60,354 nucleotides of DNA from an uncultured Acidobacteriota bacterium. Lineage in GTDB: Bacteria > Acidobacteriota > Vicinamibacteria > Fen-336 > JAGNNV01. How positions within the stretch are numbered: the first letter of the stretch is position 1; each line of letters begins with the position of its first letter. The notes under the pieces were generated by a model. The model was not told where the DNA came from. It did not search any database and saw nothing but the letters and a program-made list of their open reading frames with translations. The DNA lies in contig CAYNHK010000004.1 of the NCBI GenBank assembly GCA_964396875.1, positions 1 through 60,354 of the forward strand, in the 5' to 3' direction. The translations under genes were made by a program, and so were the position numbers. Shown piece after piece: positions 5,274 to 51,454 of the stretch.

Positions 5274-6418
5274 TGAATCACTCCTGTGTCGCGCAAGGTG
5301 TCGATGCGCGCTTTCGAAAGGCCCAGCGAACGTAGAACGTCCCGCGTGTGTTCGCCGTGCCGGGGGGCCCGGGGGCGTTTGCGGCCGGTGATCGCAGGCA
5401 GGAACGTGGGTGAGAGGAATGTACCTCTCGCGGTCTTCTGGGGCGCAAAGCCCTGCCGAGCGCGGATCTGCGGGTCGGCCAGGACCTCGGTCATGTTCTG
5501 AACCGGGGTCACGCAGGCATCGAGAGGCTCGAGGAGGGCCAGCCACTCGGCACGGGCCTTCGACTTGAAAGCCCGCTCCAGATCAGCGGACATTGCCGGT
5601 TGCTTCTTCCTCGACCACTGGGTGCGGGCGTGATCGGGGAAACCGAGCGCCTCGCAGATCGATCGCCAGAACTGCGGCTCGAGGGCGCCAAGCGCGATCC
5701 TCCGACCATCGGCGCAATCGTAGGTTCGATAACACGCGTGGGTCCCCCACAGTTCGTCGTGTTCCACATCGGGCGCGGAGAGCGAACGGACAAGAGGCGC
5801 CGAGATGAGAGCGAGGGCTCCATCCATGATCGAGAGGTCGATGACGCCACCCTTGTAGCCGCGGCGACCATGGTCCTTGAGTTTCGCGAGGATCGCGACG
5901 AGGGTCAGCAAACCCGCGGCGGTGTCGGCGGCAAGGCCGGGGGACATCGAGGCTCCGCCGCTGAGCAGGCCCACTTCTCCCATGATGTTGAGATCGTGGG
6001 TAGCGCGGCGGGATCTCGGGCCGGTCGCGCCATACCCTGAAAGGCTGACGAAGAGGAGTTTCGGGGTGGTGCGGCGAAGCCGGGCCGCGTCGAGCCCGAG
6101 TCGGTGCATCACTCCGGGCCGGAAGCTCTCGACCAGGACGTCGCTCTTCGCGGCCATGGCTTTCACGATGGCGATGCCCTCCTTCGACTTCAGGTCCAGG
6201 GCGACGCTGCGCTTGCCCCGGTTGAGCCAGGCATGGAGCGCGCTGTCCGAACCGTCGCTCACCGCGGGGGCCATGCCCCGGGTGGGATCGCCGATTTCCC
6301 TCTCCTCGATCTTCACAACCGTGGCCCCGAGGTCCGCGAGGGCGGCGGTGACGTAAGGACCGGGAAGATGTCTCGAGAGGTCGAGAACGCGGAGACCGGT
6401 GAGAGGGAGCGCTTTCAT
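5270..6418 (-). CDS. Family III CoA-transferase (CaiB/BaiF; alpha-methylacyl-CoA racemase-like)
   Basis: N-terminus MKALPLTGLRVLDLSRHLPGPYVTAALADLGATVVKIE is the typical family III CoA-transferase/AMACR signature. Start at ATG 6416-6418. Confidence 0.85.
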   Translation of the reverse strand: MKALPLTGLRVLDLSRHLPGPYVTAALADLGATVVKIEEREIGDPTRGMAPAVSDGSDSALHAWLNRGKRSVALDLKSKEGIAIVKAMAAKSDVLVESFRPGVMHRLGLDAARLRRTTPKLLFVSLSGYGATGPRSRRATHDLNIMGEVGLLSGGASMSPGLAADTAAGLLTLVAILAKLKDHGRRGYKGGVIDLSIMDGALALISAPLVRSLSAPDVEHDELWGTHACYRTYDCADGRRIALGALEPQFWRSICEALGFPDHARTQWSRKKQPAMSADLERAFKSKARAEWLALLEPLDACVTPVQNMTEVLADPQIRARQGFAPQKTARGTFLSPTFLPAITGRKRPRAPRHGEHTRDVLRSLGLSKARIDTLRDTGVIQ

Positions 6419-32750: not shown

Positions 32751-35162
32751 ATGTTTGACGATCTCCTTCGCGCGTTCCGGTCGGTCTCGATCACCCCCCA
32801 ACTGAGCGCCGCGGTGATCCTGAGCCTGGGCCTCGGCATCGGCATGAATACCGCCGTGTTCAGTGTGGTCAACACAGTGCTGCTGCAGCCCCTGCCCTAT
32901 ACCGACCCCGACGAACTGCTCGTGGTTCGGGCCGCCTTGACCAACGATGGGGTCGAGAACACACTGCTGTCCGGAGCGATCTTCAGGGAGCTTAGGCAGT
33001 CGCTGGGTCAGGTGCACGAGGTCGCCGCAATCGCCGCGGTTCGGCAGAACTTCACCGGCGCCGGCCTTCCGTCCCAGGTCCAGGTCGGCTGGACTTCGAA
33101 CAACTTCCTGTCCCTGCTCGGAGCCCGCCCGGCCCTCGGACGGAACTTCGCTCTCGACGAGCCGCCTGGCCGCGTTCTGGTGAGCGACCATTTCTGGCAC
33201 CGCCAATTCGGCGCGGACCCGAACGTGGTGGGCCGCCGCGTGTTCCTCGACGGCTTCTCGTACGAAATTGTAGGGGTGATGCCCCGGGACTTCCGGCTCG
33301 AGTTGCCTCGAATGCCGACCGAGGTGGATGTCTGGAAAGCGCCGGATGCGTGGTGGCAGAACGGGGATATCTGGAACTCCACAGACCTGAGCGGCGGTGT
33401 GCTGCGACTCGTGGCCCGGCTGAAAACAGGCGCGACCCTCGAAGGCGCCCGCGCGGAGCTTGCGGGCATCGGGTCCCGCTTGCGAAACGACTCGGCCGAA
33501 CTCAATCGGGCGGGCCTCGAGCTGAGTTTCGATCCCCTTCATGACGCGCTGGTGTCGCGCGTACGCCCCGGTCTATGGCTTTTGCTGGGCGCGGCCGGCG
33601 CGGTTCTTCTCGTGGCCTGCGCGAACGTGATGAACCTGCAACTGGTCCGCGCGCAGCGGCGAAGCCGGGAGATTGCCCTTCGTCTTGCGATGGGCGCCTC
33701 GAGGGGACAGGTGGTTCGGATGCTCCTTCTCGAGGCCGCGGTTCTGTCGGCGGCGGGCGCTTTGGTTGGACTCCTTCTCGGCTGGGGATCCCTGCGCGTT
33801 CTCCAGACCGTGATGCCGCCCGATCTTCCGCGGGCCGGCGCGGTGGGTCTCGACGCCTTCGTGTTGTTGTTCGCGGGGGCGTTGGGCCTTGGAACCGCCC
33901 TGATCTTTGGTCTCGCTCCCTCGCTCAAAGCCACACGAACCGATCCCGCCCGGGAACTTCATGGCGGGCGCGCGACCAGCGGACCTGGCCGGCAGTGGGC
34001 GAGCGGCGCGTTGATCTCCGTTCAGATCGCGCTGAGCCTGGTGCTTCTTCTCGGCCTTGGCCTGCTGGGTCGAAGCCTCGAACGAATCTACGAAGAGCCT
34101 CTCGGCTTCACGCGCGACCGGCTGCTCACTTTCACGGTCTCTCTTCCCGGAGCCAGATACGAACGCCCGCTTGGAACCGATCGTTTTCTCGTCCGGCTCG
34201 AGGCCGCGATCGAGGCGGTGCCGGGGGCTCGCGGGGCAGCTTCGATCTGGCCGCTGCCGTTTTCGCGAAAGCGCTGGAGCGGCAACTACGAGGGCGGAAT
34301 CGTGAACGCGGACCGGAAGGGCACGGCCGACTACCGTCTGGTGACACCGCATCTGTTCAAGACCATCGAGGCGCCACTCGTGGAAGGGCGTTCGTTCGAA
34401 CCTTCCGATTCCCGCCACACCGTCGTGGTCAGCCGCAGTGTGGCCGAACGGGCGTTCCCCAATGAAAGCGCCCTCGGCCGGCGACTGCGCGCCACGCCCT
34501 GGGGCAGGACCGCCGAAGAGTTCGAGATCGTCGGCGTTGTCGACGATCAGCGGCACCGTTCGCGGCGTGAGGCGCCCACGGACGCGCTCTACTTCGATTC
34601 GCGCGGATGGTCCTGGACCGACTGGGAGATCGGCATGGTGGTGCGCGCCGAGGGAGATCCGATGACTCTCGTCGAGCCCATCCGGCGCGAACTGGCGAGA
34701 CTCGATCCTGAGGTCCCCATGGCCGATGTCCAACCGATGGACGACCTCGTCGCTCGAGACGTCGCGAGCCAGCGCTTCGCCTTGAGCCTCCTCACCGCTT
34801 TCGCGGTGATCGCCCTGGTCCTCGCCCTGATCGGGGTCTACGGTGTCGTTTCGTGGAACGTCGCGCAGCGCACCCGCGAGATCGGCATTCGCCTGGCGCT
34901 TGGAGCAGACGAGCGGAGAATCGTCGCCGGCGTCGTGAGGCGTGGCGCGAAAGCGGCCGCGCTGGGAGCCGTCATCGGGCTTGCCGCGAGCGCCGCCACG
35001 GCTCGGGGCCTCGCGAGCCTGCTCTATGGTGTTTCGCCGTACGATCCCGCGGTCTTCCTCGGCGGCTTGCTCGTGCTTTACACAACCGCGCTCGTGGCCG
35101 CGTATGTTCCCGCCCGTCGGGCCGCGGCGGTGGACGCCACCCGCACGTTGCGAGCGGAATGA
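32751..35162 (+). CDS. ADOP-family duplicated orphan permease (second copy)
   Basis: Same architecture as 27831-30293 (FSVVNTVLLQPLPYTDPDELLV; two FtsX modules). Starts 3 nt after the FG-GAP stop. Confidence 0.9.
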   Translation: MFDDLLRAFRSVSITPQLSAAVILSLGLGIGMNTAVFSVVNTVLLQPLPYTDPDELLVVRAALTNDGVENTLLSGAIFRELRQSLGQVHEVAAIAAVRQNFTGAGLPSQVQVGWTSNNFLSLLGARPALGRNFALDEPPGRVLVSDHFWHRQFGADPNVVGRRVFLDGFSYEIVGVMPRDFRLELPRMPTEVDVWKAPDAWWQNGDIWNSTDLSGGVLRLVARLKTGATLEGARAELAGIGSRLRNDSAELNRAGLELSFDPLHDALVSRVRPGLWLLLGAAGAVLLVACANVMNLQLVRAQRRSREIALRLAMGASRGQVVRMLLLEAAVLSAAGALVGLLLGWGSLRVLQTVMPPDLPRAGAVGLDAFVLLFAGALGLGTALIFGLAPSLKATRTDPARELHGGRATSGPGRQWASGALISVQIALSLVLLLGLGLLGRSLERIYEEPLGFTRDRLLTFTVSLPGARYERPLGTDRFLVRLEAAIEAVPGARGAASIWPLPFSRKRWSGNYEGGIVNADRKGTADYRLVTPHLFKTIEAPLVEGRSFEPSDSRHTVVVSRSVAERAFPNESALGRRLRATPWGRTAEEFEIVGVVDDQRHRSRREAPTDALYFDSRGWSWTDWEIGMVVRAEGDPMTLVEPIRRELARLDPEVPMADVQPMDDLVARDVASQRFALSLLTAFAVIALVLALIGVYGVVSWNVAQRTREIGIRLALGADERRIVAGVVRRGAKAAALGAVIGLAASAATARGLASLLYGVSPYDPAVFLGGLLVLYTTALVAAYVPARRAAAVDATRTLRAE

Positions 35163-35181
35163 AGAGACGAAAGGACGACCT

Positions 35182-36087
35182 CTGAGAATCCCATCGGTCG
35201 AAGTTCGGAAGCGGGCCTTGCTCGCTGCATTGACGGGGCTGATGGCGGCCGCGGCGGACGCCCCGCTTTCGGCCGCGCCACCCCAGGGCCCCGCGCTCTT
35301 CTTGCCGGGAAGGGGGTCGCGGGATCTCCTGCTCGCCGGAGCCACGTTCTCGCCCGATGAACGATCCGTCTACTTCACGAGGTACTCCGCGTTCACGGTC
35401 GAGGCCGTGAAGACGATCCTTGTCTCCCATCGGACCGGAGACGAGTGGTCGGATCCTGTGCCGGTGTCTTTCTCCGGTCGATGGTCCGACACGACACCGT
35501 TCGTTTCGCCCGACGGACGGCGGCTCTACTTCGCGTCGAACCGGCCGGTCAAGGGTGAGACGAAGGAAGACTTCGACATCTGGTTCGTCGAGAGAAACGG
35601 AGACGGATGGAGCGAACCCCGCCATGTCGGGGCGATCAACGGTCCGGCGAACGAAACGTCACCCGCCCTCACCGCTTCAGGGGTTCTCTACTTCTGTTCG
35701 TGGCGAGAGGAGGGGAGCCTGGGGCTCGGAGACCTCTGGCGCGCGGAGCCCGTGGCCGGCGGATTCGGCTCGCCCCGTAATCTCGGGCCGACCATCAATG
35801 GGCCCAGCGGCGAGTGGGGCGTGACCGTGAGTCCGGACGAGCAGCTCATCGTGTTCGAGTCGTCCGGCCGACCGGAGGGGCTCTCGGGCGCTGGTGACCT
35901 TTACATGAGCCAAAGGGTCAATGGGACGTGGGCACCGGCGGTCCATCTGAAGGCGCCGATCAATTCGGCCGGGAGCGACCTAGCTCCACGGGTTTCGCCT
36001 GACGGTCGGGAGTTGTATTTCGCCAGTACTCGGAGCGGTCATCTGCAAATGTGGCGCGTCCCGCTGCCCGTGAGCCTGGAACGCTGA
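35182..36087 (+). CDS. PD40/TolB-like beta-propeller repeat protein, exported
   Basis: Repeats FSPDERSVYF, VSPDGRRLYFASNR, VSPDEQLIVF, VSPDGRELYFASTR. The signal-like segment VEVRKRALLAALTGLMAAAADA requires a start at or before 35200. CTG at 35182 sits 6 nt after AAGGA. The start codon is uncertain (ATG 35104, TTG 35218 and ATG 35242 are alternatives). Confidence 0.72.
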   Translation: MRIPSVEVRKRALLAALTGLMAAAADAPLSAAPPQGPALFLPGRGSRDLLLAGATFSPDERSVYFTRYSAFTVEAVKTILVSHRTGDEWSDPVPVSFSGRWSDTTPFVSPDGRRLYFASNRPVKGETKEDFDIWFVERNGDGWSEPRHVGAINGPANETSPALTASGVLYFCSWREEGSLGLGDLWRAEPVAGGFGSPRNLGPTINGPSGEWGVTVSPDEQLIVFESSGRPEGLSGAGDLYMSQRVNGTWAPAVHLKAPINSAGSDLAPRVSPDGRELYFASTRSGHLQMWRVPLPVSLER

Positions 36088-36094
36088 TCACCCT

Positions 36095-37876
36095 TCAGGG
36101 ACTGAGACACAGACCCACGCGGTGGCCAAACCCCGTGCCTTCCGCCGCGAACCCCGCGCCGCTTCTCAAAACGCGCGAGGCCGGGGCCGGCATCGCGTCC
36201 CAGCCCAATCGCGTGGCGAGGCGGCGATGCGCGTCATCGTAGGTCAGGCTCAGCATCGTCGAACCTCGCTGGGAGTCACGGGCGGGCAGGCGGATGTTCA
36301 ATCGCCACTGGCCGTCAACCGTCGCGACATCGATCGTCTCCGGCCTGGAGCCGAAAACCGCGGAAAGATCGGCCGCGGGCCACTCGCGACGCCAGATGAG
36401 TCCCGAGCCCTTCGGATGTCGCGGGCAGCCGGTGACGCGCCTGTCGCCTCCACCCCAGATGAAGTGGGGAGACGCTGGGTCGCCGCCGCAGGCCGCAGTC
36501 CACAGGTCGGGGCCACCTGGTTTGGAAAGCACCCCCTGCAGCGCCTGGGCCCACTCGGCGTCTGTGAGATCGCCTGCCATTTCTTTTTCGTTCCTGGCCG
36601 CATCCGGTCGCAACCAGCGGGGCACCGGCCCCTCGCCCACAAACCATGCGCAATGGGTCGAATCGCAGACGTCGGCTTCCGGGTGACGCGCGCCGCGCTG
36701 GAGGTATCGCAGGGCCGCGGACCCAAGTTGCGTCCGCAGGACACCCGCGGTCGTCCCAAGTTCGGCCTTCAGAACACCATTCGCGTAGTCGCGCGCGCTC
36801 ATGGTCGCCACGAGACGAATGGGCCCTGCCTGATCCACGACCGCGATCGCCCCGCGAATACGCCTCTCGAACTCAGGATTCTCCGCGGTGATCCGCCACA
36901 GGCCCGCTGAGAAGCGATCTCCAGGCACGGCGTTTACGGAGCCGCCGGGGCCGATAAATCCGCGCGACGAATCGGCGGGACCCGTGCCGATGTTCTGAAG
37001 GCGGACTTCATCGAGCCGCAATTCGTCGAGCATTCGAACGAGCACAGGGTCTTCGAGACCGCGCTTCTTCTCGCGCGGCCTCACCCGTGACGAGGCGCCC
37101 GTGGGCACGGATCGTCGGCCCACGCCGGTTCGAATCTTCGCGATCTCGTCTCCCGCCCGGATGGCCGCTTCACGCCCGGTGCCGCGTCGAAGCAGCCCCA
37201 GAAACGCGAAGCCGCCATCATCAACGGCCATCACGAAACCCGAGGTCCGAAGGGGCGCGCCATCGAGGGCGGGCACGGTTCCGGTCTTGGCCATGAAGCC
37301 AAAGAGCCGAAGGCCGGATGCCGTTCCGAAAAACGCCGACTCCTTCATGCCCTCGATCAACTCTCGACGGACGTCTTCGCGGCTTGTCCAGGGAGAGCGA
37401 ACGAGTTCGGCGTAGCTCGCGAGCAGCCGCTCGGGCGCGATAGTCACGGCCGCGGGCCCCGGCAGACCGATGGCCTCGGCCTCGCTCATCTCGCCCGCCC
37501 AGGAAAAGCCCGCGTCGAGGAACGATTCCCTTCTCGCTCCCGCGGGAGTGTCGCGCGCGATCTGCAGGAAGTAGGAGTTGCACGACTCGCGGATTGCGCC
37601 GCGCAGGTCGAGAGAGCCGTGGCCGCCGGGGCGCCAGCAGCCCGAAGTCCTCGTGCACATGATCCGGGGCGTCGCTTCCCGCGCATGCGCGGAAGCCCAC
37701 GCTCGCATCAGGAAGGGCTTCTGGAGCGAACCCACGGCGAGGCGCGCTTCTTTGGGAGTCCCAACGATCTGAATCTGTCCACGATTGCGGACCCACGCAT
37801 CGAAGTCGGCGGCCGACAGGGGCCCGGCAGCAAGCGCGCTCAGTATCAGCGCGGCAATCGGGGCCCGGCGCGCCAA
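36095..37876 (-). CDS. Fusion protein: compact penicillin-binding/class-D-beta-lactamase-like domain + SpoIID/LytB-like domain
   Basis: Signal peptide MARRAPIAALILSALAAGPLSA. SxxK = SLQK (aa 50-53, nt 37718-37729), SxN = SCN (aa 98-100), KTG (aa 197-199). The C-terminal half carries SARDYANGVLKAELG...DVCDSTHCAWFVG, like the SpoIID signature. TTG start immediately follows the upstream TAG. Confidence 0.8.
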   Translation of the reverse strand: MARRAPIAALILSALAAGPLSAADFDAWVRNRGQIQIVGTPKEARLAVGSLQKPFLMRAWASAHAREATPRIMCTRTSGCWRPGGHGSLDLRGAIRESCNSYFLQIARDTPAGARRESFLDAGFSWAGEMSEAEAIGLPGPAAVTIAPERLLASYAELVRSPWTSREDVRRELIEGMKESAFFGTASGLRLFGFMAKTGTVPALDGAPLRTSGFVMAVDDGGFAFLGLLRRGTGREAAIRAGDEIAKIRTGVGRRSVPTGASSRVRPREKKRGLEDPVLVRMLDELRLDEVRLQNIGTGPADSSRGFIGPGGSVNAVPGDRFSAGLWRITAENPEFERRIRGAIAVVDQAGPIRLVATMSARDYANGVLKAELGTTAGVLRTQLGSAALRYLQRGARHPEADVCDSTHCAWFVGEGPVPRWLRPDAARNEKEMAGDLTDAEWAQALQGVLSKPGGPDLWTAACGGDPASPHFIWGGGDRRVTGCPRHPKGSGLIWRREWPAADLSAVFGSRPETIDVATVDGQWRLNIRLPARDSQRGSTMLSLTYDDAHRRLATRLGWDAMPAPASRVLRSGAGFAAEGTGFGHRVGLCLSP

Positions 37877-39505
37877 CTACTTCGCCGCGGGTGTGCCGGC
37901 AGGCGCGGGTGTGGGAGGCGGCGCAACCGCGCCGAAGACAATGCGCTCTTTGAAGGACGAGCCGGTCACGCGACGCTCCACCTCGAGTGTGCGCACCGAG
38001 GGCATCCAGCCAAGAAGGCCCAGAACCCGATCGGAGAGAGGTCTCACGTTGTCGGACGAGCGTGGACCTTCGATGCGCGCCCAGCGCTTCCCCTCTTCGC
38101 GCGCGGCCGCGAGATTGAGCTTCGCGAACCGAACCACCTCACTGCTCCACGAGACCGCGGGAGCGGAACGAAGTTCGGCGGCGCTCGGACCGAGCCAGAC
38201 GAAATCGCCCATGCGCCTCCAGGCGAGTACAGGCAGACCCGGCCCCATCAGGTATTGACGTGTTTCCCCCGTGGCCGAAGGCGGCGAAAGACGCGCGCCG
38301 CGGCGGTCAAGGGTTGCCTCGAGAAGCGCGCCGAGTTCCGCATCCTTCTCCTTGGGCCACGGAAGGGCAAGGAGACGCGCCTTCGAGCGGTTGACGAGGT
38401 AGCCGAAGCCTTCGACCGGCTGGGACGCGAGAAGCGCTACCCACGCGTCGAGTTCCGCGGCCTCGGTCACAAGCCCCCCGCCCGAAACCGCGGGCACTTC
38501 GACGTTGATCGCGTAACGGTCCTCAGCACTCGCCGCCCTGGACGCGGGAAGCGGTGCGACGGCCACCTGCGGGCGATCGCTCGGGACCGGCAATGGCTCG
38601 CTCACTCCTCGGCGCAGTTCGAGAAGGAACCGGGACGCGTCACCGATCCAGCCGCTCGCCACCGCGTCCTTCGCATCGAAGATCGCACCGCGTTTCGATG
38701 CCACGGCCGCCTCCCCCTCGCGCACCTCGACCAGCCGTCCAGACTCGAGACGAAGCGCGGCACTGAGTTTCCCGCGCGACTCGCCCGCCTCCGCGAGTGA
38801 TCCAAACAGGAAATCGCGCTTGAAATAGAGATCGTTCCGAAGCGCTTCGAGGTCGAGTTCGAGGCTCGCCAGCCCTTCGAGCTTCGGCGCGAAGCGCTCC
38901 CCCGCAGCCACGGCGCCGAGGGCGAGTTTCATGGCTCGTTCGGAAGTAGCGATGATCAGAAGTCCGGAGTCGCGCGCCCACGCCAGGCCCATGCGGGTTT
39001 CGCCGTCGGCGCCTTCATCGGCGGCGCCGGTGCGCACGAGGTGATACGTCTTGCCCTGATCGATTCGCGACGTGCCCGCCTCGAAGATATCGGGCAGCGC
39101 GGCAAGCGGAGTTTCGACCACGAGAACCATCTCCATGTGACCGATGTTGAGCACGGCCAGCGCCGCCGCCGTTGCCTGCAGGTCGAGGATCGTCTGGAAC
39201 GACAGCGCCGTCTCTCCGCGGAACCGCGACCACTGATCCTGGAGCTTCGCGCCCACCTGACTCTGGTTGAAACCCCGCGCGACACCGTCATCCTCGGGAA
39301 GGGTTCCGTGAAGAGCTTTCCGGAAACCGCCGCCGAGCGCGGCATCGAAGGCAGGCACGTCGGGGATCGAGAGGCGGATCATCGACGCGGGAAGAGGCAG
39401 TCCCTGCTCAGGCGTCGGTTGCGCCCAGGCAAGAGCTGCGATCAGGCTCAGACCAAACGTCAACGCGAGGGTAAAGCGCGGACGACGAGCGGGGATCATC
39501 ATCAT
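37877..39505 (-). CDS. Exported hypothetical protein, 542 aa, no recognised domain
   Basis: Signal peptide MMMIPARRPRFTLALTFGLSLIAALAWA, balanced composition, Pro/Ala-rich C-terminal tail. ATGA overlap with the upstream gene at 39502-39505. Confidence 0.65.
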   Translation of the reverse strand: MMMIPARRPRFTLALTFGLSLIAALAWAQPTPEQGLPLPASMIRLSIPDVPAFDAALGGGFRKALHGTLPEDDGVARGFNQSQVGAKLQDQWSRFRGETALSFQTILDLQATAAALAVLNIGHMEMVLVVETPLAALPDIFEAGTSRIDQGKTYHLVRTGAADEGADGETRMGLAWARDSGLLIIATSERAMKLALGAVAAGERFAPKLEGLASLELDLEALRNDLYFKRDFLFGSLAEAGESRGKLSAALRLESGRLVEVREGEAAVASKRGAIFDAKDAVASGWIGDASRFLLELRRGVSEPLPVPSDRPQVAVAPLPASRAASAEDRYAINVEVPAVSGGGLVTEAAELDAWVALLASQPVEGFGYLVNRSKARLLALPWPKEKDAELGALLEATLDRRGARLSPPSATGETRQYLMGPGLPVLAWRRMGDFVWLGPSAAELRSAPAVSWSSEVVRFAKLNLAAAREEGKRWARIEGPRSSDNVRPLSDRVLGLLGWMPSVRTLEVERRVTGSSFKERIVFGAVAPPPTPAPAGTPAAK

Positions 39506-42500
39506 CTGGCCACCTGCCGCGAAAGATCAGCCTGGACGATCTGCGAGATGAGACCAAAAGTGAGATCGCGGGGCCGATAGAGCAGGGAGCGACCACCGAC
39601 GACCCGGTGCGAAACCGTGGGCGGCTCGACCGTCGCGGAGGAAAGTTCGGCACGCAGGGCCCGAGCCTCCGACCATCTTCGATCGGCGAGAAGGTCGAGG
39701 GCGCGCCCGACTTCCGCACGGTCGCCATTGCCCGCGGCGATTCTCGCGATATCGGCGAGGGCCGCATCGATGTCGGAGGCCTTGAAACGCCGGCGGGTCA
39801 AATCCAGGGCCGCCGACTCCGCGGAGAGGAAGCCGGCCAACGTTCGCGCGGCTCGCGGCGAAGCCACGAGCGACCTCGCGGCGCGAAGGCGCAGGAACGT
39901 CTCGTCGCCGCCGACATCTATGAAACCCAGATCCTCCACATCGCGAAGTGCGCGCGCGGCGAGGAAGGCGAGCTGCGGAGCCATCGCGGTGGGACGCCGG
40001 AGCGCGGCTCGCGCGGAGAGGATGTCGAACGGGTGATCCCTGAGGCGCGCCTGAAGCGACGCGCCGATGGTCTCGGGGCTCTCGCGCCAGAAACGGAGGG
40101 CCTGTTTCCATGCGTCCGGACCGGCGCCGCCCGCATCGATCGACCGACGCCAGAAGTCGAAGGCGCGGATCTCCTCAGCGCGCGCGAAGAGAACCTTCTC
40201 CCGTGCGCCGGCCATGTAGACAGCAGCGTCCCGTCTGCGGCCGACGCGGTTCAACCAGTCGGCGCGCTTCTCCACCTCGGCGAACGCCGACCAGAAGGGC
40301 CGCGCCTGCGCGATCCATGGCCCCGCCAGTTCGGGTGCGTACCGAACGAGATGACTCACAACGTCCGCATGCTGGTAGCCGGCCACATCGCCGCGGCGAT
40401 AGGCCTTTCGCAGCCGTTCGCCAATCCCGGCCTTCGCGGAGGGGTCGGCGATCTCGAGACGCATTCCCCAGAACTCGAGGAGGTGCGGCTGGTCCTCGAT
40501 CGTCTGATCGAGGGCGGCCTGCACGTCGGCTTCGATCAGGCCGAGTTTCCGGGCGGCCACGAAAGGCTCTCGGAGCGTGCGAAGCCACAGGGTCCCGGGC
40601 CCGGGGTCCGCGGCATCCTCCGCATCTCCGCCGCTCCAGTCCGTCCGGACGCTTTCCACATCTCCCTCAGTGTCCAGTGTGTCGGCACCCGCTATCGCGG
40701 AGATGGGCCTGAACGTGAGAGCGGGCGGAGTTTGCATCGAGGTCAGCGCCGCTTTGAAGAGGGCCACCGCGAGGGCGTCCTCTCCTCGAGCGAGGCGGAC
40801 GCGGATCATCAGCACCCGTCGCGCGTCAGCGTCCCCAACCTCCAAAGGAATGGCATCGAGAGCGGCGGTGTCGGGAAGGCTGTCGATGGCAACGATCGCG
40901 CGGGTGCGATCGGCGGAGGGAACGGTCTCCGCCCACGAAGCGGCGACGGGCCAGAAGTCGCCGAGCCGAGCAAGACCCGCGTGTGGAAGCGGGGCGGATT
41001 CGGTGGCCCACAACTCGGCGAGCCAGACGCGAAGTTCGGCCGCTTCGAGCATGGCCGCCTTGTCGCCCCACCTCGCGCCAAGCGCCGCACGGAATCCAAC
41101 CATGTCTTCGGTCCGGAAGCGGCGACCTGCTTCGGCGCCGGCCGTGTCGTAGATCGAGGCGAGCAATGCGGGCAGGACCGGGACCGCGGGGTCAAGCAGG
41201 GACAGGGGCGCGGGCAGGCCGAGATCCTCCGCCATCGACGCATACGCGCGCAGCGTGTCCTCGTTCAGACGATTCTGATCCGCAACGAGGCGTCGCTTGA
41301 GATCGTCGACAGCCTCGGCCTTGCGTCCGGCATCCACGAGCAGGCGCAGACGGAAGCGCAGCAGTTCGGGATCGGTGGTGCGCAGGCCGAGACTCTCGAT
41401 CCGGGCCAGGGCCTCGGCGGGACCCTTGAGCGCCAGGGCCAGACGCGCGGTGAGAAGAGCCCGTTCGGTTTCGCCGCCTGATTCAGGCCACTCTGCGGGC
41501 ACGTCGATGGCGGATGGATCGTTGGCCCGATAACGCGCGTAGGCCTGAAGGGCGAACCAGGCGAGGCCGGGGCGTTCACCCCACAAAGCTCCGGGGAAAC
41601 GCAGGGTGTCGATGCCGCGGCCCGCCACGCGATCGTCACCGGTCTCGATCACGTTGCCGGTCACGTCCGTCCGCGGTTTGAACATCGGCCACGTGAACTT
41701 CGGATCCGCGCCGAGTATGTCCTTGAGGACACTCGGCCCGAGCAGCTTCGTCGCGAAGTCGTTTTGGGCAGTGAAAACGGCAGTGTCGCTCAGGAGCGCG
41801 CCCAGCGACAACGATGTCTCGTTGACCGTGTTGCGGCGACCGATCAGGACCGGATCCTCGAGATTCGCGGCGTTGGTCACCGGCCGCTCCCAGAACGACA
41901 ACCACGCGATGCGCGACTCCGGCTTCAGTTCGCTCAGCAGGAACGAGACCTCCCAACCGCGGGCGCCGATCGCGCGGAAACGCTCCCACACACGGCGATC
42001 CTCGAAGATCGCCGAGAGGCCCGCCATGAGTTCGGGCTCAGTTCGCAACCCGCGCGCGAACGTCTCCATCGCAGCCCTGGAATCAAGCCACGTTGTCCAT
42101 CCTTCGCGAGGGCTCTCGGCGGTGATGACCGAAGGGCCACGGGCGATACCGATCAGCGCGGTCAGCCGGGGGCCGAGGAACTTCGCGAGGTCGGAAGCGC
42201 GATCGAACCGCACGAGATGCGACGCCCAAAGCGCATCGAAGTCCGGACCGCGGACCCGATATTCGCTCCCGCTGCCGTCGGCCTTGTTCACACTCACGAG
42301 GACCTGATCGGCGGCCTCGTTCAGGAAATCGGCAGGCGTCTCCTGGGTCCACGGACCGCTCACTTGTCGCGCGAAGCGCTGAGCGATCCGATACCGGAGG
42401 GGAGCCTCGAGGCGCGACCGCTCGATGAAGCTCCACCACTTGTTGAGAAAGGCCTCATCCGCGCGGGACGAGGGGAAGGTCTTTTCGAGGAGCCAGTTCA

Positions 42501-45500
42501 GGACCTGCTCGCGATTCTCGATTCGGCCGTACTGACCGAGAACGTCGCCCGCGGATCCCAGTCGATCTGCGTTCTCGAGATCGACGTTGAGCAGCGGCAT
42601 GAAAGTGTCGTTGAGCAGAGCGAGTTGGAATGCCTCTTCGAAGGAGAGGCTCGAAGCCTCGACTTCTTCGGGCGAACCCTGAGGAGAGAGGAAGCGCCAG
42701 GCGAGGCGGGGCTGACCCTGACGCCACAACCTTCGCGCGGCATCCGCGGTGCGATTCCCCAGATCCTCCTCGGTGGGCTCGGTCTTCTCGAAGGCCTCAA
42801 GAGCCGCACGCTCCACCGCCACCGCCTTCACGAGATCTCCGCCTCGAATGTACAGCTCGCTTCGCCGCCCCGCGACGTAGGGATCGTCGGGCCGCTGAAC
42901 GTTCCAGCCCTCGAGGAAGTCGGCGGCTTCGACGAATCGGGCATCGCGCTCCATCAGTTCGACCGCTTCGTCCCAGAGCACCTGGCGCTCGGGCCGGATG
43001 CGGGCCGCGGTTTGAGCCATCTCGATACCGCCCGGGAGATTGTCGGTGGCGACCCTGAGTTCGCGCGCGGCCACCGCCCATCGCACGTCGCGCGGCGAGC
43101 GCTGGTGCTGCCGCTCGAAGAACGAGACGAGGGTCTCGGGCTGCCCCGACTTGCGCGCGGTTCGGGCGGCTTCCTTGAGCCAGTCGCGCTGGGTGCTGCG
43201 ATTGAGCGCCTCGATCCACGTCGAAACCGAGGTCGCGTAGACCTTCTCGACCGCAGCGGCCCGCGCCACCTCCGCGAAGACCTGGGCCCGGAGTTCGGGT
43301 CTGAACTTCGCGGCCTCCGTCGTCGCGAAGGCTACCGCGGCAAAGGAAGGGTCCTGCTGAAAACGAAGCCTCGCCTGGAGGGAGATGGCGCCCAGCCGCT
43401 CGTCGTCGGTGAGGGACGCCGTGTTCAGAAGCCGATCGAGGGCTTTGGAGGCCCGTGGGAGATCCTTCTCGCCGAGCGATTCCGAAATCAGCCGCGTGAG
43501 GAGAGGGACGAGGTGACCGGAGGCGGCACGCACGGTCGCATCTTCGAGCGCCTGCCTCGCCTCATCGGCGCGGCCGTTGCGTCGCAGAAACTGGACGCGA
43601 TCTTCGATGACGCCGAGGCTCCAGGGGTATTTCGCGATGAGTCCGCCCCACGATGCGCGGGCGGGCTCGAAACCGCGGGTCCTTTCTATGAAGGAGGCGC
43701 GGGCCACAAGAGCCTGGATCTTCGAAGCACTCTCCGGCATCCCATCGATTCGTCCGCCGAGGGTGACCCACAAGGCGTCCGCCTCGGCCTGACGGCCAGC
43801 ACTCGCGAGGCGTTGGGCCAGGTCGATTTCGAGGCGCAGACGCTCCTCGACCGTCGGCGCCAGCTCGGCCCGGCGGGCCACGATGCCCGTGAAGAAGCGA
43901 TCCCGCGCGTCGTTGGCGCCCCAGGCAGGGGACGAATACGCGTGAGCCGCACTTTCGAGGGCGCTCAGAAACCGGTCCGTGGTCGCCGTGGGCGTCATCG
44001 CCGCCGCGCGGGCCAAAAGCGCCTCCGCCACCTTCGCGATTCCCGCGTGTTCGTTGCCTCGCGCAGCGAGCCGCTTCGCCTCTCTTTCTTCTCGGCCCAC
44101 CGGATCGTTCGGCTGATCCATCGCGTCGATCCAGTCGTCCGCGTCCCAATCGAGGCCGGGCGTGGGGGTATGGATCGAGCCGAGTGGCCAGAACGCGAGC
44201 AATGTCTTCTCATCGTCGGCGTGGCCCGGCTTGAGCGATTCGATCGCGACGAGGACGCGGCTGAGCACGCGCTCCCGGCCCATCCACTGAGCGAGGCGTC
44301 GGAGCGAACGCTGGTCATTTTCAAAACCGGAGCAGTAGCAGTCGTCGCTCTCGCCTTCGGGCCGAACCGCATCGAGATACTCGCGGATCGCGCCATCGAT
44401 GTCCTTCACTTCCTCGCGGAGCACACCGGCCTCGAACGCCAGCATCGTCGGCCGATCGAGGGCCTTGCGCCCGGCCTCGATGGTGTCGAGCGCCTCCTTC
44501 ATATGGCCGTAGTCCCAGAGAAGCGTGGCGGTTTCGCGAATTCGCTCTTCCTGACGCGGGTCTCGATCGAGCAGGGCCTTCCAGATCGTGAGCGCCATCT
44601 CCGGTCGGCCCGTTTCCTGGTACAGCTCACCCAGTTCCGTGATCAGCGGATTCGGGTCGATCAACGCGGGGACCGCTCGGTCGACGACGGCCTTCGCCGG
44701 CGCTTCGTGGGAAAGGTCGAGGCCGGCGAGTGACCGGTGGATCTGCAGCGCCTGGCGTGCGGCCGGCTCGTCGCCGGGGTAGGCGGCGGAAAGCCGTGAG
44801 GCGGCGTCTGCCGCCTTCTCGAAGAGCGAAAGACGCGAATAACCCTCCACAAGAATGATGTCGTCCACCGGGGTCCGCGCGGCGGCGCGCTCGAGAGCGG
44901 CGAGCTTCGCTTCGATCGCGTTGTCCTTCATGAGACCGGCGAAGTACGCCTCGCGCACCGAAGGGTCGACCGCGAAGATCGCCCAGCGGCGCTCGGCGAG
45001 CAGGGAGTCCTCGACCACCGCGGCCTGTCGTGCGTTGGTGGCGCGTGCGCTCGACCGCGCCCACGCGGAGGCGGTGATCAAGCGGCCCTCGGCGGCGTGG
45101 AGGACGGCCGGACTGTGCGGGAAACGTTCGAGGGCCTTGAGCACAACCCAATCGCCCCAGGGAACGAGACGCGTGCGGGTCCCGACCCTCGGCTGTTCGG
45201 GGATCTCGAGGCGGATGCTGGTGTCCGAGGAGCGTTCGAACATCGCGGCGCCGCGGAACGTGGCGGCGATCCGTTCGGCCAGCGCGCGCAGTTCGATCTG
45301 CCGCTTCTGACGGGTGAGGACGCGGGCCAGGCGGTTCCACCACGAAGCGTCTTCGAACCGCGAAAGGGCGGCTTCATAGCGCGGGGCCAGTTCGTCGTCG
45401 AGATTCCATGCGTCGAGGCGCGACGCGAGCTGAAGCCACAAGGCCTCGGCGTTTGGGAGGCGATCCATTTCGCCGAGCAGAAGTCCTATGGAACTGCGGT

Positions 45501-47205: not shown

Positions 47206-49601
47206 CGGCGCACCTCCACCTTCGTCCGACCAAACCCCACGTTCTTGGCCAGATCGACGGCCTCGAAAACGACATCCTGCACTCCCGCCACGGAGGCGGG
47301 AAGCCGCACGCGGCCGGTGGAAGCGTTCGCGGCCTTGTCCCAGCGCAACGGCACCGGCGGCAGGTTGCCGACCCGAGCCGAGAGGAAGATGACGTCGTCA
47401 TCGGTGGACGCGGTCAGGACGATCTCATCGCCCACGCGCGCCAACTTCTGCACCTTCGGCGTCACCTGCGGGGCACGGCCATCGATCACGAAGGTTTTCG
47501 ACTCGGTCGCGGTGTAGCCACTTCGATCGCGCATCACGATCTGAACGCTGTAGCGCCCGTCCTTCAGCGACTCAGGAACCAGGAACCGTCCTTCAAAGAC
47601 ATTCGATTGGGGACGCTTCACGAGGGGCAGCTTCAAACCGAACGGGAAAAGAGCGGTCGCCATGACCGTGCCTTCATCACACTCGACGCGCAGCACAGGG
47701 TCACCGGGCTGGATACGTCGAGGGCGGAGGAGCGAGCGTGGCGCGGCAAGAAAGGCCGTGTAGGGAGTGACGAACTTGTAGCGGCGCGAGAGTTCGATGA
47801 TCTCGTCGACCCATTCGCGTTTCTCTCCCTCGGCTTCAATCCGACGGAGCAAATCATCGACCCGCGCGCGCGCCCAGCGTCTTGGAAGGTCGCGAGCCTC
47901 GAGGGCCTTCGCGGGCAGGGCGGCGGTGAGCGTGCTGGAATCGCGGGGCAGGATTCCCGAAGCAAGCGCGAAACGCACTTCGTTCGCAGGTCTTGAATAG
48001 CGGCCGATGAAACCGGACAGCGACTGAGCAGCAGGCGGCTGCACCAGCACGGGGTAGATATCCCTGAGGCCGGGATCGCCTGAGGTCACTCGGAGTGCGC
48101 CCTCGTTCAGTGCTGCGGACCTTGGCGCGGCCGACGCCCGGGCGGGGCCGAGGAGCCGGTCGAAGAAGAGGTCCGTCTCGGGCTCGGACGAGAGTGCGGT
48201 CACGACTCCCTCCGCGGCTCCACGCAACGCAGCGCCGACGTCAGGCGTCGCGACGCTGACATAAAGAGGCGTCCTCCTGCGCGCAGCATTGAGGTCGCTT
48301 GAGTTCGGCATCGCAACGCCATCAGTGAAAAGAACCAGCCGGCCCTTGTCTCCATCCCCGACGAGCTTTTGGGCCGCACGCAGGGCGTCGAGAATGTTGG
48401 TGCCCGGCGACAGCGCGCGATTGCGGAGCCGTTCGAGGGATGTGGTCTTCGCGAGATCGATGGCGTTCGCCATCGAAGGCGGCGCATCGACAGTGGAATC
48501 GAAAGGGACGAGGGCGAACTTGTCCGCGGGAGTCAGCGCGCCGAACAGCCGAACGAGGCGCTGATACGACATCTCGAGACCGGAAAAGCGATGCGACAAC
48601 GAAGTGTCGAAGAGCACGGCCACCGAAAGGGCGCCGCGTTTGGCCGATGTCGCCGGGTTGGCAGCGCCCGGCGTCGCGGGTGCGTTGACCGCAGGCGGAA
48701 GCACTTCCATCAGAAAGAAGCCGTCCTTCTCGAGGGGAATGTCTGCGGGCCGCTCCCAGGGGGCGAGGGCCAGGCCATCGGGCATCCGGCCGTCGGGATT
48801 GCGGAAGGCCGAGAGTTTGAGCGGCGTCTCATCGCGCAACTTGAAGCGAACGATCAGATCGCGATCGAGCTTCACGTTCGTGCCCTCGAAGGCAACACCG
48901 TCCGCCGAGGGCGTGAGAGGGAGGCCATTCGCGGTCGCTTCATGGACAAGTCCGTTCAGCCCGACCCGGATGCGAAGCGTGCGAGCCACGAGGGGCTCGC
49001 CGTCGATCGGCGCCAGGGCCATCCGGAACTCACCCTTGAGGCCAACGATGTTGACCTCCTGCTGAAACTGCAGTTCGAGCCGCTTGGTCGCCTTCGCGGG
49101 AATGGGAGCGACCTTCACCGAGAAGGGCGCGGACCCCGAGCGCGACGTCGGGGCCGGACCATCACCCGGCTCGCGGTCTTCCTCCTCGCCCTGCTGAAGA
49201 AGGCCGGGATCGATGCGTTGCGTGGTCAGCGCCTCGTAGATGGCCCGGGCCCGACGTTTCTCCAGAATCACGCCGGGAATGCGAACGAGACCATCCCACA
49301 CCGCGAAGTCGCCGATCGCCGCGGAAGGCGCAAGCGCGAAACGGTACGTGCCTTCCTGAATCTCGGCGGTGTGGTTCTCGAAGATCTGGCGCACGTTCAC
49401 GCGGGCGTAGCCGCGCGCGACAGACGCGTCGATCGTCATATCGCGCAGGGAGAGAACGGTCGCGTCCTGACGACCGGTGCTCGTGGGGACCAGGAGACCG
49501 GACTGGGCGCGCGCCGAACCGGCCGAAGCGATGAGCGCAGCGCCGAACAGCAGTCTTCCGACCTGCTGTTCTACGGCTGAACGTCGCGCTCGACCGACCA
49601 T
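47202..49601 (-). CDS. Exported VIT + von Willebrand factor A domain protein
   Basis: Signal peptide, then a VIT-like segment (VARGYARVNVRQIFENHTAEIQEGTYRFALAPSAAIGDFAVWDGLVRIPGVILEKRRARAIYE). The VWA domain has a complete MIDAS: DTSLS (aa 332-336, nt 48594-48608), GTN, FTDG. Beta-rich C-terminus. Confidence 0.85.
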   Translation of the reverse strand: MVGRARRSAVEQQVGRLLFGAALIASAGSARAQSGLLVPTSTGRQDATVLSLRDMTIDASVARGYARVNVRQIFENHTAEIQEGTYRFALAPSAAIGDFAVWDGLVRIPGVILEKRRARAIYEALTTQRIDPGLLQQGEEEDREPGDGPAPTSRSGSAPFSVKVAPIPAKATKRLELQFQQEVNIVGLKGEFRMALAPIDGEPLVARTLRIRVGLNGLVHEATANGLPLTPSADGVAFEGTNVKLDRDLIVRFKLRDETPLKLSAFRNPDGRMPDGLALAPWERPADIPLEKDGFFLMEVLPPAVNAPATPGAANPATSAKRGALSVAVLFDTSLSHRFSGLEMSYQRLVRLFGALTPADKFALVPFDSTVDAPPSMANAIDLAKTTSLERLRNRALSPGTNILDALRAAQKLVGDGDKGRLVLFTDGVAMPNSSDLNAARRRTPLYVSVATPDVGAALRGAAEGVVTALSSEPETDLFFDRLLGPARASAAPRSAALNEGALRVTSGDPGLRDIYPVLVQPPAAQSLSGFIGRYSRPANEVRFALASGILPRDSSTLTAALPAKALEARDLPRRWARARVDDLLRRIEAEGEKREWVDEIIELSRRYKFVTPYTAFLAAPRSLLRPRRIQPGDPVLRVECDEGTVMATALFPFGLKLPLVKRPQSNVFEGRFLVPESLKDGRYSVQIVMRDRSGYTATESKTFVIDGRAPQVTPKVQKLARVGDEIVLTASTDDDVIFLSARVGNLPPVPLRWDKAANASTGRVRLPASVAGVQDVVFEAVDLAKNVGFGRTKVEVRR

Positions 49602-51454
49602 CGTGTCAACCCCTCGTCCGTCCCGATGTAGAGAAAGCCGTCCTTCACGAAAAGCGCCGTCACGCGCGGCGACGGCAGCGATAGCTTAAGCCGTTCGAAC
49701 CGCGTTCCATCCATCGAAAGTCGGTAGAGACCCGTGCCGTCGGTTCCGGCGTAAACCCGACCGCTCGCGGACACCAGACAGCCGGTGTTGATCTTCAGAC
49801 CCTGGGTCTCAGCGAATGGTCGCCAGTCGCCAGGATCGGACATCGCGCCCACGCGCCGGGTGAGTCCGCCACCATAGGTGCCGATGAGAACACCGTCTTC
49901 CACAGGCAGGATCGCTGTGACCCACGGGTGAGGCAACCTGCCTTCTCCCGAAGCCACGCGCCATCGCACCTTCAGATCTTCGACGTAGCCGAGCCCCGAG
50001 GGAGTTCCTACGAGCAGACCCATCCCGACGGAAGCAAGGGCGGTGGCCTGATTTCCGGGAAGGCCGTGAAAGGCGGAGAGGAGCTTGCGCTCGGGCAGGA
50101 GCACACCTTCGCCGAAACCAATGGCGACGCCGCCGCGTGTCTGGGCGAGGGAGAACGCAGCTCCCGAGCCCTCGACCCGCATCACACGTGCCCCGTCGAA
50201 CCGGAAGGCGCCGCGCAGACTGGCGACATGGAGAGCGCCGCCGGCATCCAGCAGGCCATTCACGGCCCAGACCGCCGAGGCCGGATCGGGCAGAGATCGA
50301 AGCATCATGGGCTCTTCGGATCTGGCGAGAGCGCTGGCATCAGTCGATCGCGCCGCCGGGACAAGTTCGGCGAGACCGCCGTCGAAGAAGCCCGCGACGA
50401 TGCGCCCGCGATACTCGGTGAGGGCGCCGACATGAGCACTTCCAAAGCTCTCCTGCTGGCGTCGCCTCGAAGCCAATCGCCACGCGCCGTTCGCTCTCTC
50501 GACAAGGTCGTTCGAGGCATCCGCCATAAGTCGGTCCCCCACTGTGAAGACGCGTCTCACCTCAGCGGGAAGCCGCTCGACCTGAACGCGACCGGCGGCG
50601 TCGAAGCGCCGCACCGAGGTGTCGGGAGGATCGGATGTCGCGAAAAGCTGGTCGCCGAGAACCGCGATCGAACCCACGGCCGCGCCATTCGGCACGGCCC
50701 GCATCACCCCGTCCACATCCTCCGCGAAGAGACCGATGGGCGTGACCGCGTGGACTCGCCCATCGAAAACGGCGACGGCGTCGATCCAGGGCGTGTCGAG
50801 GCCCTCGATGCTTTTCGGCTTCGTTACACCTCCCTGAGTCACGAAAAGTCCCGTCTCCCCGCCGCTCAGCACGCGTCCGGCATCCGAGACCGCGATCGCA
50901 CGAATCGGAAACTGATGCAGCCGAGCCATCGTCCGCTCGGCGAAACCGATGCGGAACAGACCTTCCCGCGCGCCGATCCAGAGTTCGCCGGCAGGCGTCT
51001 CCGCCAGAGTTCGAACGTGCAGCGTCCCAAATCCGGTCCTGATCTCGGACCACGCGCCGTCCCGATAGACGAACAGGCCCTCCTGGCCCAGGCCCACCGC
51101 GAGGTCTCTCCGCCAGGCGGAGAGGGCGGTCGCCCGTCGAGTGGGCAGGGGCAGAGACATGTCGATAGGCGCGAGCCCGTTGTCGCTCGGATCGCGGGAT
51201 GTCTCCAGCCGCACGACGCCCGAAGCACCCGCCAGGTACAGCCCTTCCGGCAGTGCGACCACCGCCTCGACATCCTGGCCGCCCCAGAAAGGAAGCGGCG
51301 AACGCTCCGGCACGGGCACGAATTCGACGGGTTGCTCCCGGGCCGCAGGGGCCTCCAATGCCCTTTCCACACGCCGATTCAAGAAGAACCCGATAGCGGC
51401 CACGGACGTCAGGGCGATCGCGAATCCGATCCGCAAGAGTTTCCCGCGAGGCAT
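49571..51454 (-). CDS. Membrane-anchored beta-propeller protein (two-component-regulator-propeller/Reg_prop-like repeats), no output domain
   Basis: A single N-terminal TM (LLRIGFAIALTSVAAIGFFL) followed by repeated G.LW.G...GLF/GLY motifs (ELWIGAREGLFRI, LLVGTPSGLGYV, VLIGTYGGGLTR, FLYIGTDEGLTRW). The 3' end overlaps the next gene by 31 nt. Confidence 0.72.
   Translation of the reverse strand: MPRGKLLRIGFAIALTSVAAIGFFLNRRVERALEAPAAREQPVEFVPVPERSPLPFWGGQDVEAVVALPEGLYLAGASGVVRLETSRDPSDNGLAPIDMSLPLPTRRATALSAWRRDLAVGLGQEGLFVYRDGAWSEIRTGFGTLHVRTLAETPAGELWIGAREGLFRIGFAERTMARLHQFPIRAIAVSDAGRVLSGGETGLFVTQGGVTKPKSIEGLDTPWIDAVAVFDGRVHAVTPIGLFAEDVDGVMRAVPNGAAVGSIAVLGDQLFATSDPPDTSVRRFDAAGRVQVERLPAEVRRVFTVGDRLMADASNDLVERANGAWRLASRRRQQESFGSAHVGALTEYRGRIVAGFFDGGLAELVPAARSTDASALARSEEPMMLRSLPDPASAVWAVNGLLDAGGALHVASLRGAFRFDGARVMRVEGSGAAFSLAQTRGGVAIGFGEGVLLPERKLLSAFHGLPGNQATALASVGMGLLVGTPSGLGYVEDLKVRWRVASGEGRLPHPWVTAILPVEDGVLIGTYGGGLTRRVGAMSDPGDWRPFAETQGLKINTGCLVSASGRVYAGTDGTGLYRLSMDGTRFERLKLSLPSPRVTALFVKDGFLYIGTDEGLTRWSVERDVQP

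Follow-up and report, generated by a model that had tools for sequence, protein, structure and literature searches.

Here, we describe a gene that ends a five-gene operon in a 60,354-nucleotide stretch of DNA from an uncultured Acidobacteriota bacterium (Vicinamibacteria; Fen-336; JAGNNV01; GenBank assembly GCA_964396875.1, contig CAYNHK010000004.1, positions 1 to 60,354 of the forward strand); this whole stretch is referred to below as the window. The gene encodes an exported protein, hereafter the fusion protein, in which a small transpeptidase-fold domain of the penicillin-binding protein (PBP) type, the mini-PBP, is joined through a linker to a region that appears to be a divergent SpoIID/LytB domain.

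The gene is the fifth and final one of five co-directional genes that abut or overlap one another on the minus strand from 51454 to 36095, in the order Reg_prop propeller protein (627 amino acids, aa), VIT + VWA protein (799 aa), helical giant with TPR repeats (2567 aa), a 542-aa protein and the fusion protein (Table 1). An earlier note on this DNA had pointed out its terminal place in the operon, its TTG start and the export of its product, and we agree on all three. The TTG follows the TAG stop codon of the 542-aa gene without any gap and, among the in-frame starts, it alone yields a complete signal peptide, (M)ARRAPIAALILSALAAGPLSA followed by ADFDAW; in orthologues from the same genus, the corresponding start codon is ATG and the signal peptide likewise stops right before DDFDAW. 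After Sec export, the fusion protein is probably soluble in the periplasm.

About 250 homologues of the fusion protein were found, mostly in metagenome bins of Vicinamibacteria and other Acidobacteriota. Thirty-five family members make up the alignment A1 used below, and residue conservation was counted over 118 full-length homologues, down to ~40% identity. S50, K53, S98, C99 and N100 are kept wherever the position aligns (116 of 116 aligned homologues for S50 and K53), K197, T198, G199, E372, H398, C404 and C409 are invariant in 118/118, and H408 is present in 116/118. Because the motif residues are conserved wherever aligned across such a range of identity, the occurrence of the motifs is not a matter of chance. 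When 1.84 billion cluster representatives were searched exhaustively with a profile, 72 clusters were found at E ≤ 1e-30, about 20 of which are full-length members of the compact fusion family; many stand-alone mini-PBPs and longer fusions were also returned. One protein from this search, P0501 (662 aa), has TPR repeats at aa ~160-230 fused directly to a mini-PBP domain at aa 445-661, i.e., a second, independent link of TPR scaffolds with the mini-PBP family.

The mini-PBP and SpoIID-type halves

By sequence and fold, the N-terminal domain is a trimmed class B PBP (PBP2/PBP3-like) transpeptidase domain with an SxN motif. The three motifs that the earlier note had placed within the first ~200 aa are found there, SLQK at aa 50-53, SCN at aa 98-100 and KTG at aa 197-199, with spacings of 48 and 99 residues. 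Searched singly against Pfam, NCBIfam and the PDB, the sequence gives weak, sub-threshold PBP2/MrdA-type matches around SxN (TIGR03423, E 5.8e-7; PDB 8yjx, E 0.065) and no match to SpoIID. At the family level, PF00905 is matched by 31 of the 35 members at E ≤ 1 (best 1.5e-6), the PBP2 match in the PDB improves to 2.6e-7 with the 35-sequence profile, and this profile places aa 39-207, a segment that includes the three motifs, on 4ztk, an FtsI-like transpeptidase domain of 316 aa. A stand-alone, cassette-encoded homologue of the domain scores 84 bits on PF00905 and matches the fusion protein at 5e-17 by BLASTP. The AlphaFold2 (AF2) model of the full-length protein has a mean predicted local distance difference test score (pLDDT) of 80, >90 through most of aa 30-250, and a predicted template modelling score (pTM) of 0.46; the top 50 matches found by Foldseek in the PDB are all PBP transpeptidase-domain structures, mostly from class B PBPs (best E 2e-9, probability 1.00). 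The fold, the three active-site motifs and the local PBP2-like sequence are thus common to the N-domain and class B PBPs (PBP2/MrdA, PBP3/FtsI). However, the latter have ~330 residues, a transmembrane anchor and a pedestal/dimerisation domain, whereas the N-domain has ~225 residues, begins at aa 24 after the signal peptide, and shows neither a membrane anchor nor a pedestal (PBP dimer) domain, with no match to PF03717. A role as a usual SEDS-coupled synthase is therefore excluded.

The C-terminal half, aa 276-593, is predicted to be a divergent SpoIID/LytB domain. Both parts of the SpoIID-like signature that had been noticed earlier are present, YANGVLKAELG at aa 364-374 and CDSTHCAWFVG at aa 404-414, and profile comparisons point to homology. 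In plain BLASTP, the 392-aa SpoIID of genome G057, which scores 57.8 bits on PF08486 (SpoIID), aligns with fusion aa 335-590 over 256 residues at 7e-16. The hhalign comparison of the C-domain with 15 SpoIID proteins or domains, most of them above the PF08486 cutoff in this analysis, gives 99.9% probability and E 7.5e-35 over 288 columns, spanning the beta-rich N-subdomain to the GH(G/R)VGLC motif. PF08486 is matched by 25 of the 35 family members (best 6.5e-5), and the C-terminal-half profile reaches the Bacillus anthracis SpoIID structure 4rwr at E 0.014; in that alignment, E372 coincides with the Glu of ...GVVASEM... and GHRVGL with GHGVGM. With canonical acidobacterial SpoIIDs of ~750 aa, hhalign aligns the last 87 columns only (91.7%); the cassette-linked SpoIIDs are the informative intermediates.

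In Clostridioides difficile SpoIID, E101 is catalytic and zinc is bound through H134, C140, H145 and C146 (PMC6221140). H398, C404, H408 and C409 match the type of this site and may form a metal site, with a motif spacing of 6/4/1 versus 6/5/1 in C. difficile SpoIID, i.e., one spacing is off by one residue. The fusion protein has several motifs in common with the sporulation lytic transglycosylase SpoIID from Bacillus and Clostridioides (PDB 4rwr, 5i1t, 5txu), namely Y-x-x-G-V-x-x-x-E including its catalytic-type Glu, the zinc-type loop CD(S/T)THC, CGG and GH.VG. Unlike this SpoIID, the fusion protein has no membrane anchor, sporulation link or C-terminal tail and is fused to a PBP domain, and no SpoIIP-type amidase partner was seen.

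The domain-architecture search that the earlier note had proposed supports both domains by family-level and profile-profile searches only, the single sequence being below the Pfam thresholds. With both domains supported and the catalytic Ser and Lys conserved in orthologues, neither of the outcomes named there as speaking against the fusion, a domain without support from hidden Markov models (HMMs) or a variable catalytic Ser/Lys, was found.

The source genome also encodes a canonical SpoIID (G000:C156:8934-9197 (-), locus L011), with 89.5 bits on PF08486, an open reading frame (ORF) of ~760-820 aa and the full tail; therefore, the fusion gene is not its sole SpoIID-type gene. The fusion gene was not recovered by a six-frame search of the source genome with PF08486. 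Another genome of the same genus carries a second partial copy of the C-half (G402:C111:1800-2417) with two in-frame TGA codons, which is possibly a pseudogene fragment.

Table 1. Features of the fusion gene and its operon. Positions are those of the window; aa positions refer to the fusion protein.
Feature	Position	Strand	Basis
Whole gene, 593-aa mini-PBP/SpoIID fusion protein, TTG start, TGA stop	36095..37876	-	593 codons + TGA
Sec-type signal peptide, aa 1-22: ARR n-region, hydrophobic core, cleavage-type site between LSA and A, no lipobox Cys	37811..37876	-	Read from sequence; orthologues have equivalents
Minimal PBP transpeptidase-fold domain, aa 24-250	37127..37807	-	AF2, Foldseek and profile searches
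SxxK motif, S50-L-Q-K53	37718..37729	-	S and K in 116/116 aligned homologues
SxN motif, S98-C99-N100, inside PBP2-like stretch CW..GHG..L..A..SCN.YF	37577..37585	-	117/117 homologues
KTGT motif, K197-T200	37277..37288	-	118/118 homologues
Arg/Pro/Ser-rich variable linker, aa 251-275	37052..37126	-	pLDDT 36-62; variable and gapped in A1
Beta-rich N-subdomain of the SpoIID-type half, aa 276-358	36803..37051	-	AF2 strands; aligns to N-terminal beta region of stand-alone SpoIIDs and to YfaQ
SpoIID/LytB-type catalytic-type region, aa 359-593, ends 3 aa past GHRVGLC	36098..36802	-	BLASTP, hhalign
Glu372, position of the SpoIID catalytic glutamate, Y-x-x-G-V-x-x-x-E	36761..36763	-	Aligned to 4rwr ...GVVASEM...; 118/118
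H398-x5-C404-x3-H408-C409, putative zinc-site-type motif	36650..36685	-	H398/C404/C409 invariant, H408 116/118
G-H-R-V-G-L-C, aa 584-590, counterpart of SpoIID GHGVG(L/M/F)(C/S)	36107..36127	-	Alignments
542-aa exported partner, no known domain	37877..39505	-	Present in all fused loci by synteny
Giant helical/TPR protein of the cassette, 2567 aa	39502..47205	-	Domain matches and synteny
VIT + VWA protein, 799 aa	47202..49601	-	Domain matches and synteny
Reg_prop propeller protein, 627 aa, operon gene 1	49571..51454	-	Conserved in L047 and L048

Two genes on the plus strand converge on the operon end and are probably unrelated neighbours: a duplicated permease of MacB/FtsX type (ADOP kind) at 32751-35162 and a PD40 beta-propeller protein at 34942-36087, whose gene ends 7 nucleotides from the end of the fusion gene.

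Origin of the fusion and its known relatives

The distribution of the two halves was followed by searches of ~440 genomes of the phylum. The full-length fusion is present in 14 of the 17 genomes of the source genus, and also in a few other genera of the order and in a single further family of the phylum; elsewhere, the halves have separate homologues, N-only and C-only. In genomes G057, G041, G031, G075 and G147, the halves are adjacent, co-directional separate genes, the mini-PBP (~230-310 aa) followed by SpoIID, with a ~570-750-aa protein without Pfam match and a TPR giant of >1200-1800 aa encoded upstream. The ~570-aa gene is weakly similar (HMM or BLASTP) to the 542-aa gene of the window in G057 and G041, and is matched to it by position and size only in G031, G075 and G147. 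The five-gene operon with the fusion is conserved in loci L047 and L048, and its four-gene core in L001 and L002. Trees of the N-half and of the C-half have the same groupings, fused or split; for example, a 526-aa fusion groups with the split pairs of G075 and G147 in both. It follows that the PBP/SpoIID pair evolves together as one unit and that fusion has taken place more than once. The fusion protein is a fusion of two genes that are adjacent in cassettes of other Acidobacteriota.

Across loci L041, L042, L043, L045, L046, L047, L048, L001, L002 and window 36095-51454 (-), the conserved core consists of the giant TPR protein, the ~550-aa orphan, the mini-PBP and SpoIID, and the VIT-VWA and Reg_prop propeller genes are upstream additions in the fused-gene clade. 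L002 (698-8475), from a distant relative, has three overlapping ORFs of 198, 574 and 2109 aa in place of one giant gene; each of them matches the giant of the window, and the cause is either frameshifts/assembly errors or a broken gene. In L048 (G421:C1), from the same order, ~950 nucleotides (4490-5436) separate the 542-aa-family gene from the longest ORF of the fusion (721 aa), and they could hold an N-terminal extension or an inserted small gene.

The coupling of these two domains, called unusual in the earlier note, is not unprecedented. Escherichia coli YfaQ (b2226, "tandem DUF2300", COG5445) was described in 2025 as a transpeptidase-like plus SpoIID-like protein (bioRxiv 10.1101/2025.02.11.637708), and Transpeptidase + SpoIID proteins recognisable by Pfam occur in myxobacteria and Acidobacteriota. 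YfaQ shares with the fusion protein the export, the length of ~550-600 aa, a gene beside a giant periplasmic protein, and the domain order, i.e., a PBP-transpeptidase-like domain, a beta-rich region and a SpoIID-like domain. The hhalign probability of A1 is 80% with the single E. coli YfaQ and 96.2% (E 2.8e-9, 320 co-linear columns) with a 22-sequence YfaQ-family alignment. YfaQ itself scores 27 bits on PF08486 and 302 bits on PF10062 (DUF2300), which 0/35 fusion family members match at E ≤ 1. In the YfaQ family, the motifs read SLWK/SCG/KTW, the second and third being degenerate with SCG and KTW invariant, and there is no H..C..HC; in the fusion protein, all of these are intact. YfaQ also carries a third, C-terminal HExxH module that the fusion protein does not have, and it belongs to a type II alpha-2-macroglobulin (A2M) operon, whereas the partner of the fusion protein is a TPR giant and not an A2M. 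The fusion protein thus represents the YfaQ/MagE-type transpeptidase-SpoIID module in a trimmed variant that keeps its motifs intact and has new genomic partners.

In the C-terminal "DUF2300" part of YfaQ (L003:10149-11798:-), the HExxH zinc-peptidase-type motif reads HEYLH at aa 520-524, and acidobacterial fusions of 770-854 aa have RHExxH at the equivalent C-terminal place; HExxH is absent from the fusion protein and all five operon proteins. Deletion of yfaQ in E. coli gives wider cells, with a phenotype that groups with those of peptidoglycan/envelope mutants (bioRxiv 10.1101/2025.02.11.637708). Pseudomonas aeruginosa MagE (PA4488; COG5445, 61.7 kDa, with a signal peptide) occupies the YfaQ position in magABCDEF and, judged from gene order, size and COG, appears to be equivalent to YfaQ; the mag operon protects P. 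aeruginosa against peptidoglycan-targeting type VI secretion system (T6SS) effectors (PMC12663445).

The longer relatives, of 669-854 aa, are above the Pfam thresholds for both PF00905 and PF08486, and those in Archangium, Cystobacter, Blastocatellia and Luteitalea are named "SpoIID/LytB domain-containing protein" by NCBI. These Pfam-recognisable fusions (Archangium; acidobacterial, 770-860 aa) agree with the fusion protein in their two domains, in domain order and in having SxxK/SCN/KTG and the SpoIID motifs intact; they keep the full SpoIID tail and carry or precede a RHExxH module, whereas the clade of the window is shorter, tail-less and sub-threshold with both models. For instance, Archangium gephyra WP_053067189.1 (666 aa) is matched by the N- and C-domain HMMs of the fusion at 8.8e-17 and 6.8e-24, with intact SVLK/SCN/KTG and the full SpoIID tail, and it occupies the YfaQ position of a MagC - A2M - YfaP-like operon. 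This myxobacterial Mag-type operon (L049; GCA_003387095.1, QUMU01000011.1, 1958-12683) encodes a 533-aa protein, MagC, an A2M of 1568 aa that has a TED domain, a YfaP-like protein, the Transpeptidase + SpoIID fusion and a 233-aa RHEVAH protein. As RHEVAH lies in the protein after the fusion, the HExxH module of YfaQ is a separate gene there.

We also considered whether the operon in the window is a Mag/Yfa operon in disguise, and rejected this, the YfaQ-like gene being the only one in common. The set of type II alpha-2-macroglobulin, DUF1175/MagC, DUF2138 and DUF2135 is absent from the operon of the window; its proteins show VIT, VWA, TPR and Reg_prop only, with no A2M or MG domains in the 2567-aa giant. 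Nothing was found between the 542-aa protein and YfaA by BLASTP or hhalign, and there was no similarity of the 542-aa protein to the first, 533-aa gene product of Archangium or of the VIT-VWA protein to the YfaP-like protein.

Proposed role in peptidoglycan remodelling

We favor, with some reservation, the view that the fusion protein is a periplasmic two-activity peptidoglycan-remodelling enzyme dedicated to its cassette and derived from two fused genes. The reality of the gene, the export signal, the domain homologies, the conservation of catalytic residues, the fusion origin, the synteny and the co-evolution of the halves are directly supported; the activities, the substrate and the link to the giant are predicted from the sequence. 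In the PBP half, Ser50 with Lys53, Ser98, Asn100 and Lys197 would form an acyl-enzyme with D-Ala-D-Ala stem peptides, and would then make or break 4-3 cross-links as a transpeptidase, endopeptidase or carboxypeptidase, three activities that look alike at the sequence level. Given that it lacks the SEDS-coupling pedestal, this half would have to act on existing or nascent peptidoglycan. In the SpoIID half, Glu372, beside the Cys/His zinc-type loop, may cut glycan strands as a lytic transglycosylase. The flexible linker of ~25 residues (pLDDT <62) would let both sites act at neighboring positions, and the two halves together may be a tool for locally cutting and re-cross-linking peptidoglycan, working on behalf of the giant TPR protein and its partners or side by side with them, possibly as YfaQ/MagE accompany type II alpha-2-macroglobulins. 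The constant pairing of the module with a giant periplasmic protein, TPR giant or macroglobulin, suggests local wall opening/resealing or damage repair.

Several observations weigh against such a two-activity enzyme. The single sequence scores 15 bits on PF00905, below the gathering threshold of 22.1, and PF08486 finds nothing in it at E ≤ 1. In Foldseek searches of the PDB with a separate AF2 model of the C-half (pLDDT 80.5, pTM 0.77), there is no SpoIID among the top 50 and no match reaching E 0.001, the top ones being small beta-sandwiches. The SpoIID tail, CQxGAxxMAxxG...ILxHYFP of 30-41 residues, is present in every stand-alone or canonical SpoIID examined and is missing in the fusion protein, the end lying 3 residues past GHRVGLC in 83 of the 118 homologues; this loss and the change from GHG to GHR in the SpoIID motif could abolish or alter the activity of the SpoIID half. 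The characterized SpoIID requires glycan strands that were first stripped of their peptides by an amidase (PMC6221140), and no amidase gene was seen in the cassette; therefore, the substrate may differ, or housekeeping amidases may be needed. YfaQ, the closest named relative, has the degenerate motifs SCG and KTW, and deletion of MagE alters the processing of MagD; MagE was proposed to be a chaperone-like factor (PMC5764988).

Part of this would fit a non-catalytic peptidoglycan-binding or assembly subunit, whose folds dock the giant onto the cell wall or chaperone it, as proposed for MagE; the degenerate second and third motifs of YfaQ, the MagD processing phenotype and the missing SpoIID tail all point that way. 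We think this unlikely, as it is difficult to see why every catalytic-type residue of both domains would be strictly retained in 118 homologues, at identities as low as 40%, if there were no catalysis, and the unfused cassette versions score well on both Pfam families. It is also improbable, in our judgment, that the PBP half alone is enzymatic and that the tail-less SpoIID half has lost lysis and now serves as a glycan-strand recognition module targeting a DD-peptidase. In its favor, the fused clade has fixed both the loss of the C-terminal end and the replacement of GHG by GHR, and the modelled C-half has no SpoIID match in Foldseek; however, Glu372 and the Zn-type ligands are essentially invariant (even H408, the least conserved, is seldom replaced), and the GHRVGLC motif is itself strictly conserved.

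The remaining alternatives concern the N-domain and the gene itself. The earlier note likened the N-domain to class D beta-lactamases or BlaR sensors, and the resemblance in layout holds, since both the spacing of 48 + 99 residues and the size of ~225 aa match class D enzymes and BlaR sensor domains; the class D motifs are numbered S70/S118/K216. The identity did not hold, and we rejected a class D-like beta-lactamase or a BlaR/MecR-type beta-lactam sensor as very unlikely: the second motif is SxN (SCN) instead of SxV, the residues around it resemble those of PBP2, the top 50 Foldseek matches of the N-domain in the PDB include neither a beta-lactamase nor a BlaR structure, the fusion protein has no transmembrane or zinc-protease transducer, and the mini-PBP is always paired with SpoIID and cell-envelope genes. 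The existence of unfused versions in other genomes might raise the suspicion that the single ORF is an assembly or frameshift artefact joining two genes. There is hardly any chance of this, because the same single ORF of 560-640 aa is found in >100 independent assemblies, in 14/17 genomes of the genus and also on closed or near-closed contigs, and the linker is in frame and conserved in length.

Beyond the two-activity enzyme, we put forward a broader idea that is speculative and to be taken as rather doubtful at present. In this view, mini-PBP + SpoIID would be a portable peptidoglycan "cut-and-patch" module on which different giant periplasmic proteins may draw, A2M in the Mag/Yfa operons and the 2000-2600-aa TPR giant with VIT-VWA and propeller partners here. 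The cassette of Acidobacteriota would accordingly be an analogue, without a macroglobulin, of the Mag envelope damage-response system, and the tail-less, motif-intact fusion would be the active enzyme in it that repairs or opens the wall.

In bacterial alpha-2-macroglobulin operons, YfaQ/MagE is a subunit that still awaits an explanation; such operons have been tied to the integrity of the envelope and to the ability to withstand T6SS effectors that target peptidoglycan. In the acidobacterial family, the same two-domain module is found with every catalytic residue intact, cut to its two core domains and beside a different giant partner. As the module is also paired with a TPR giant, it is not macroglobulin-specific, which constrains models of its role. 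It is also documented here that a co-evolving pair of PBP and SpoIID genes has been fused and split repeatedly, and the acidobacterial fusion, free of the degenerate motifs of YfaQ, is a clean candidate for biochemistry.

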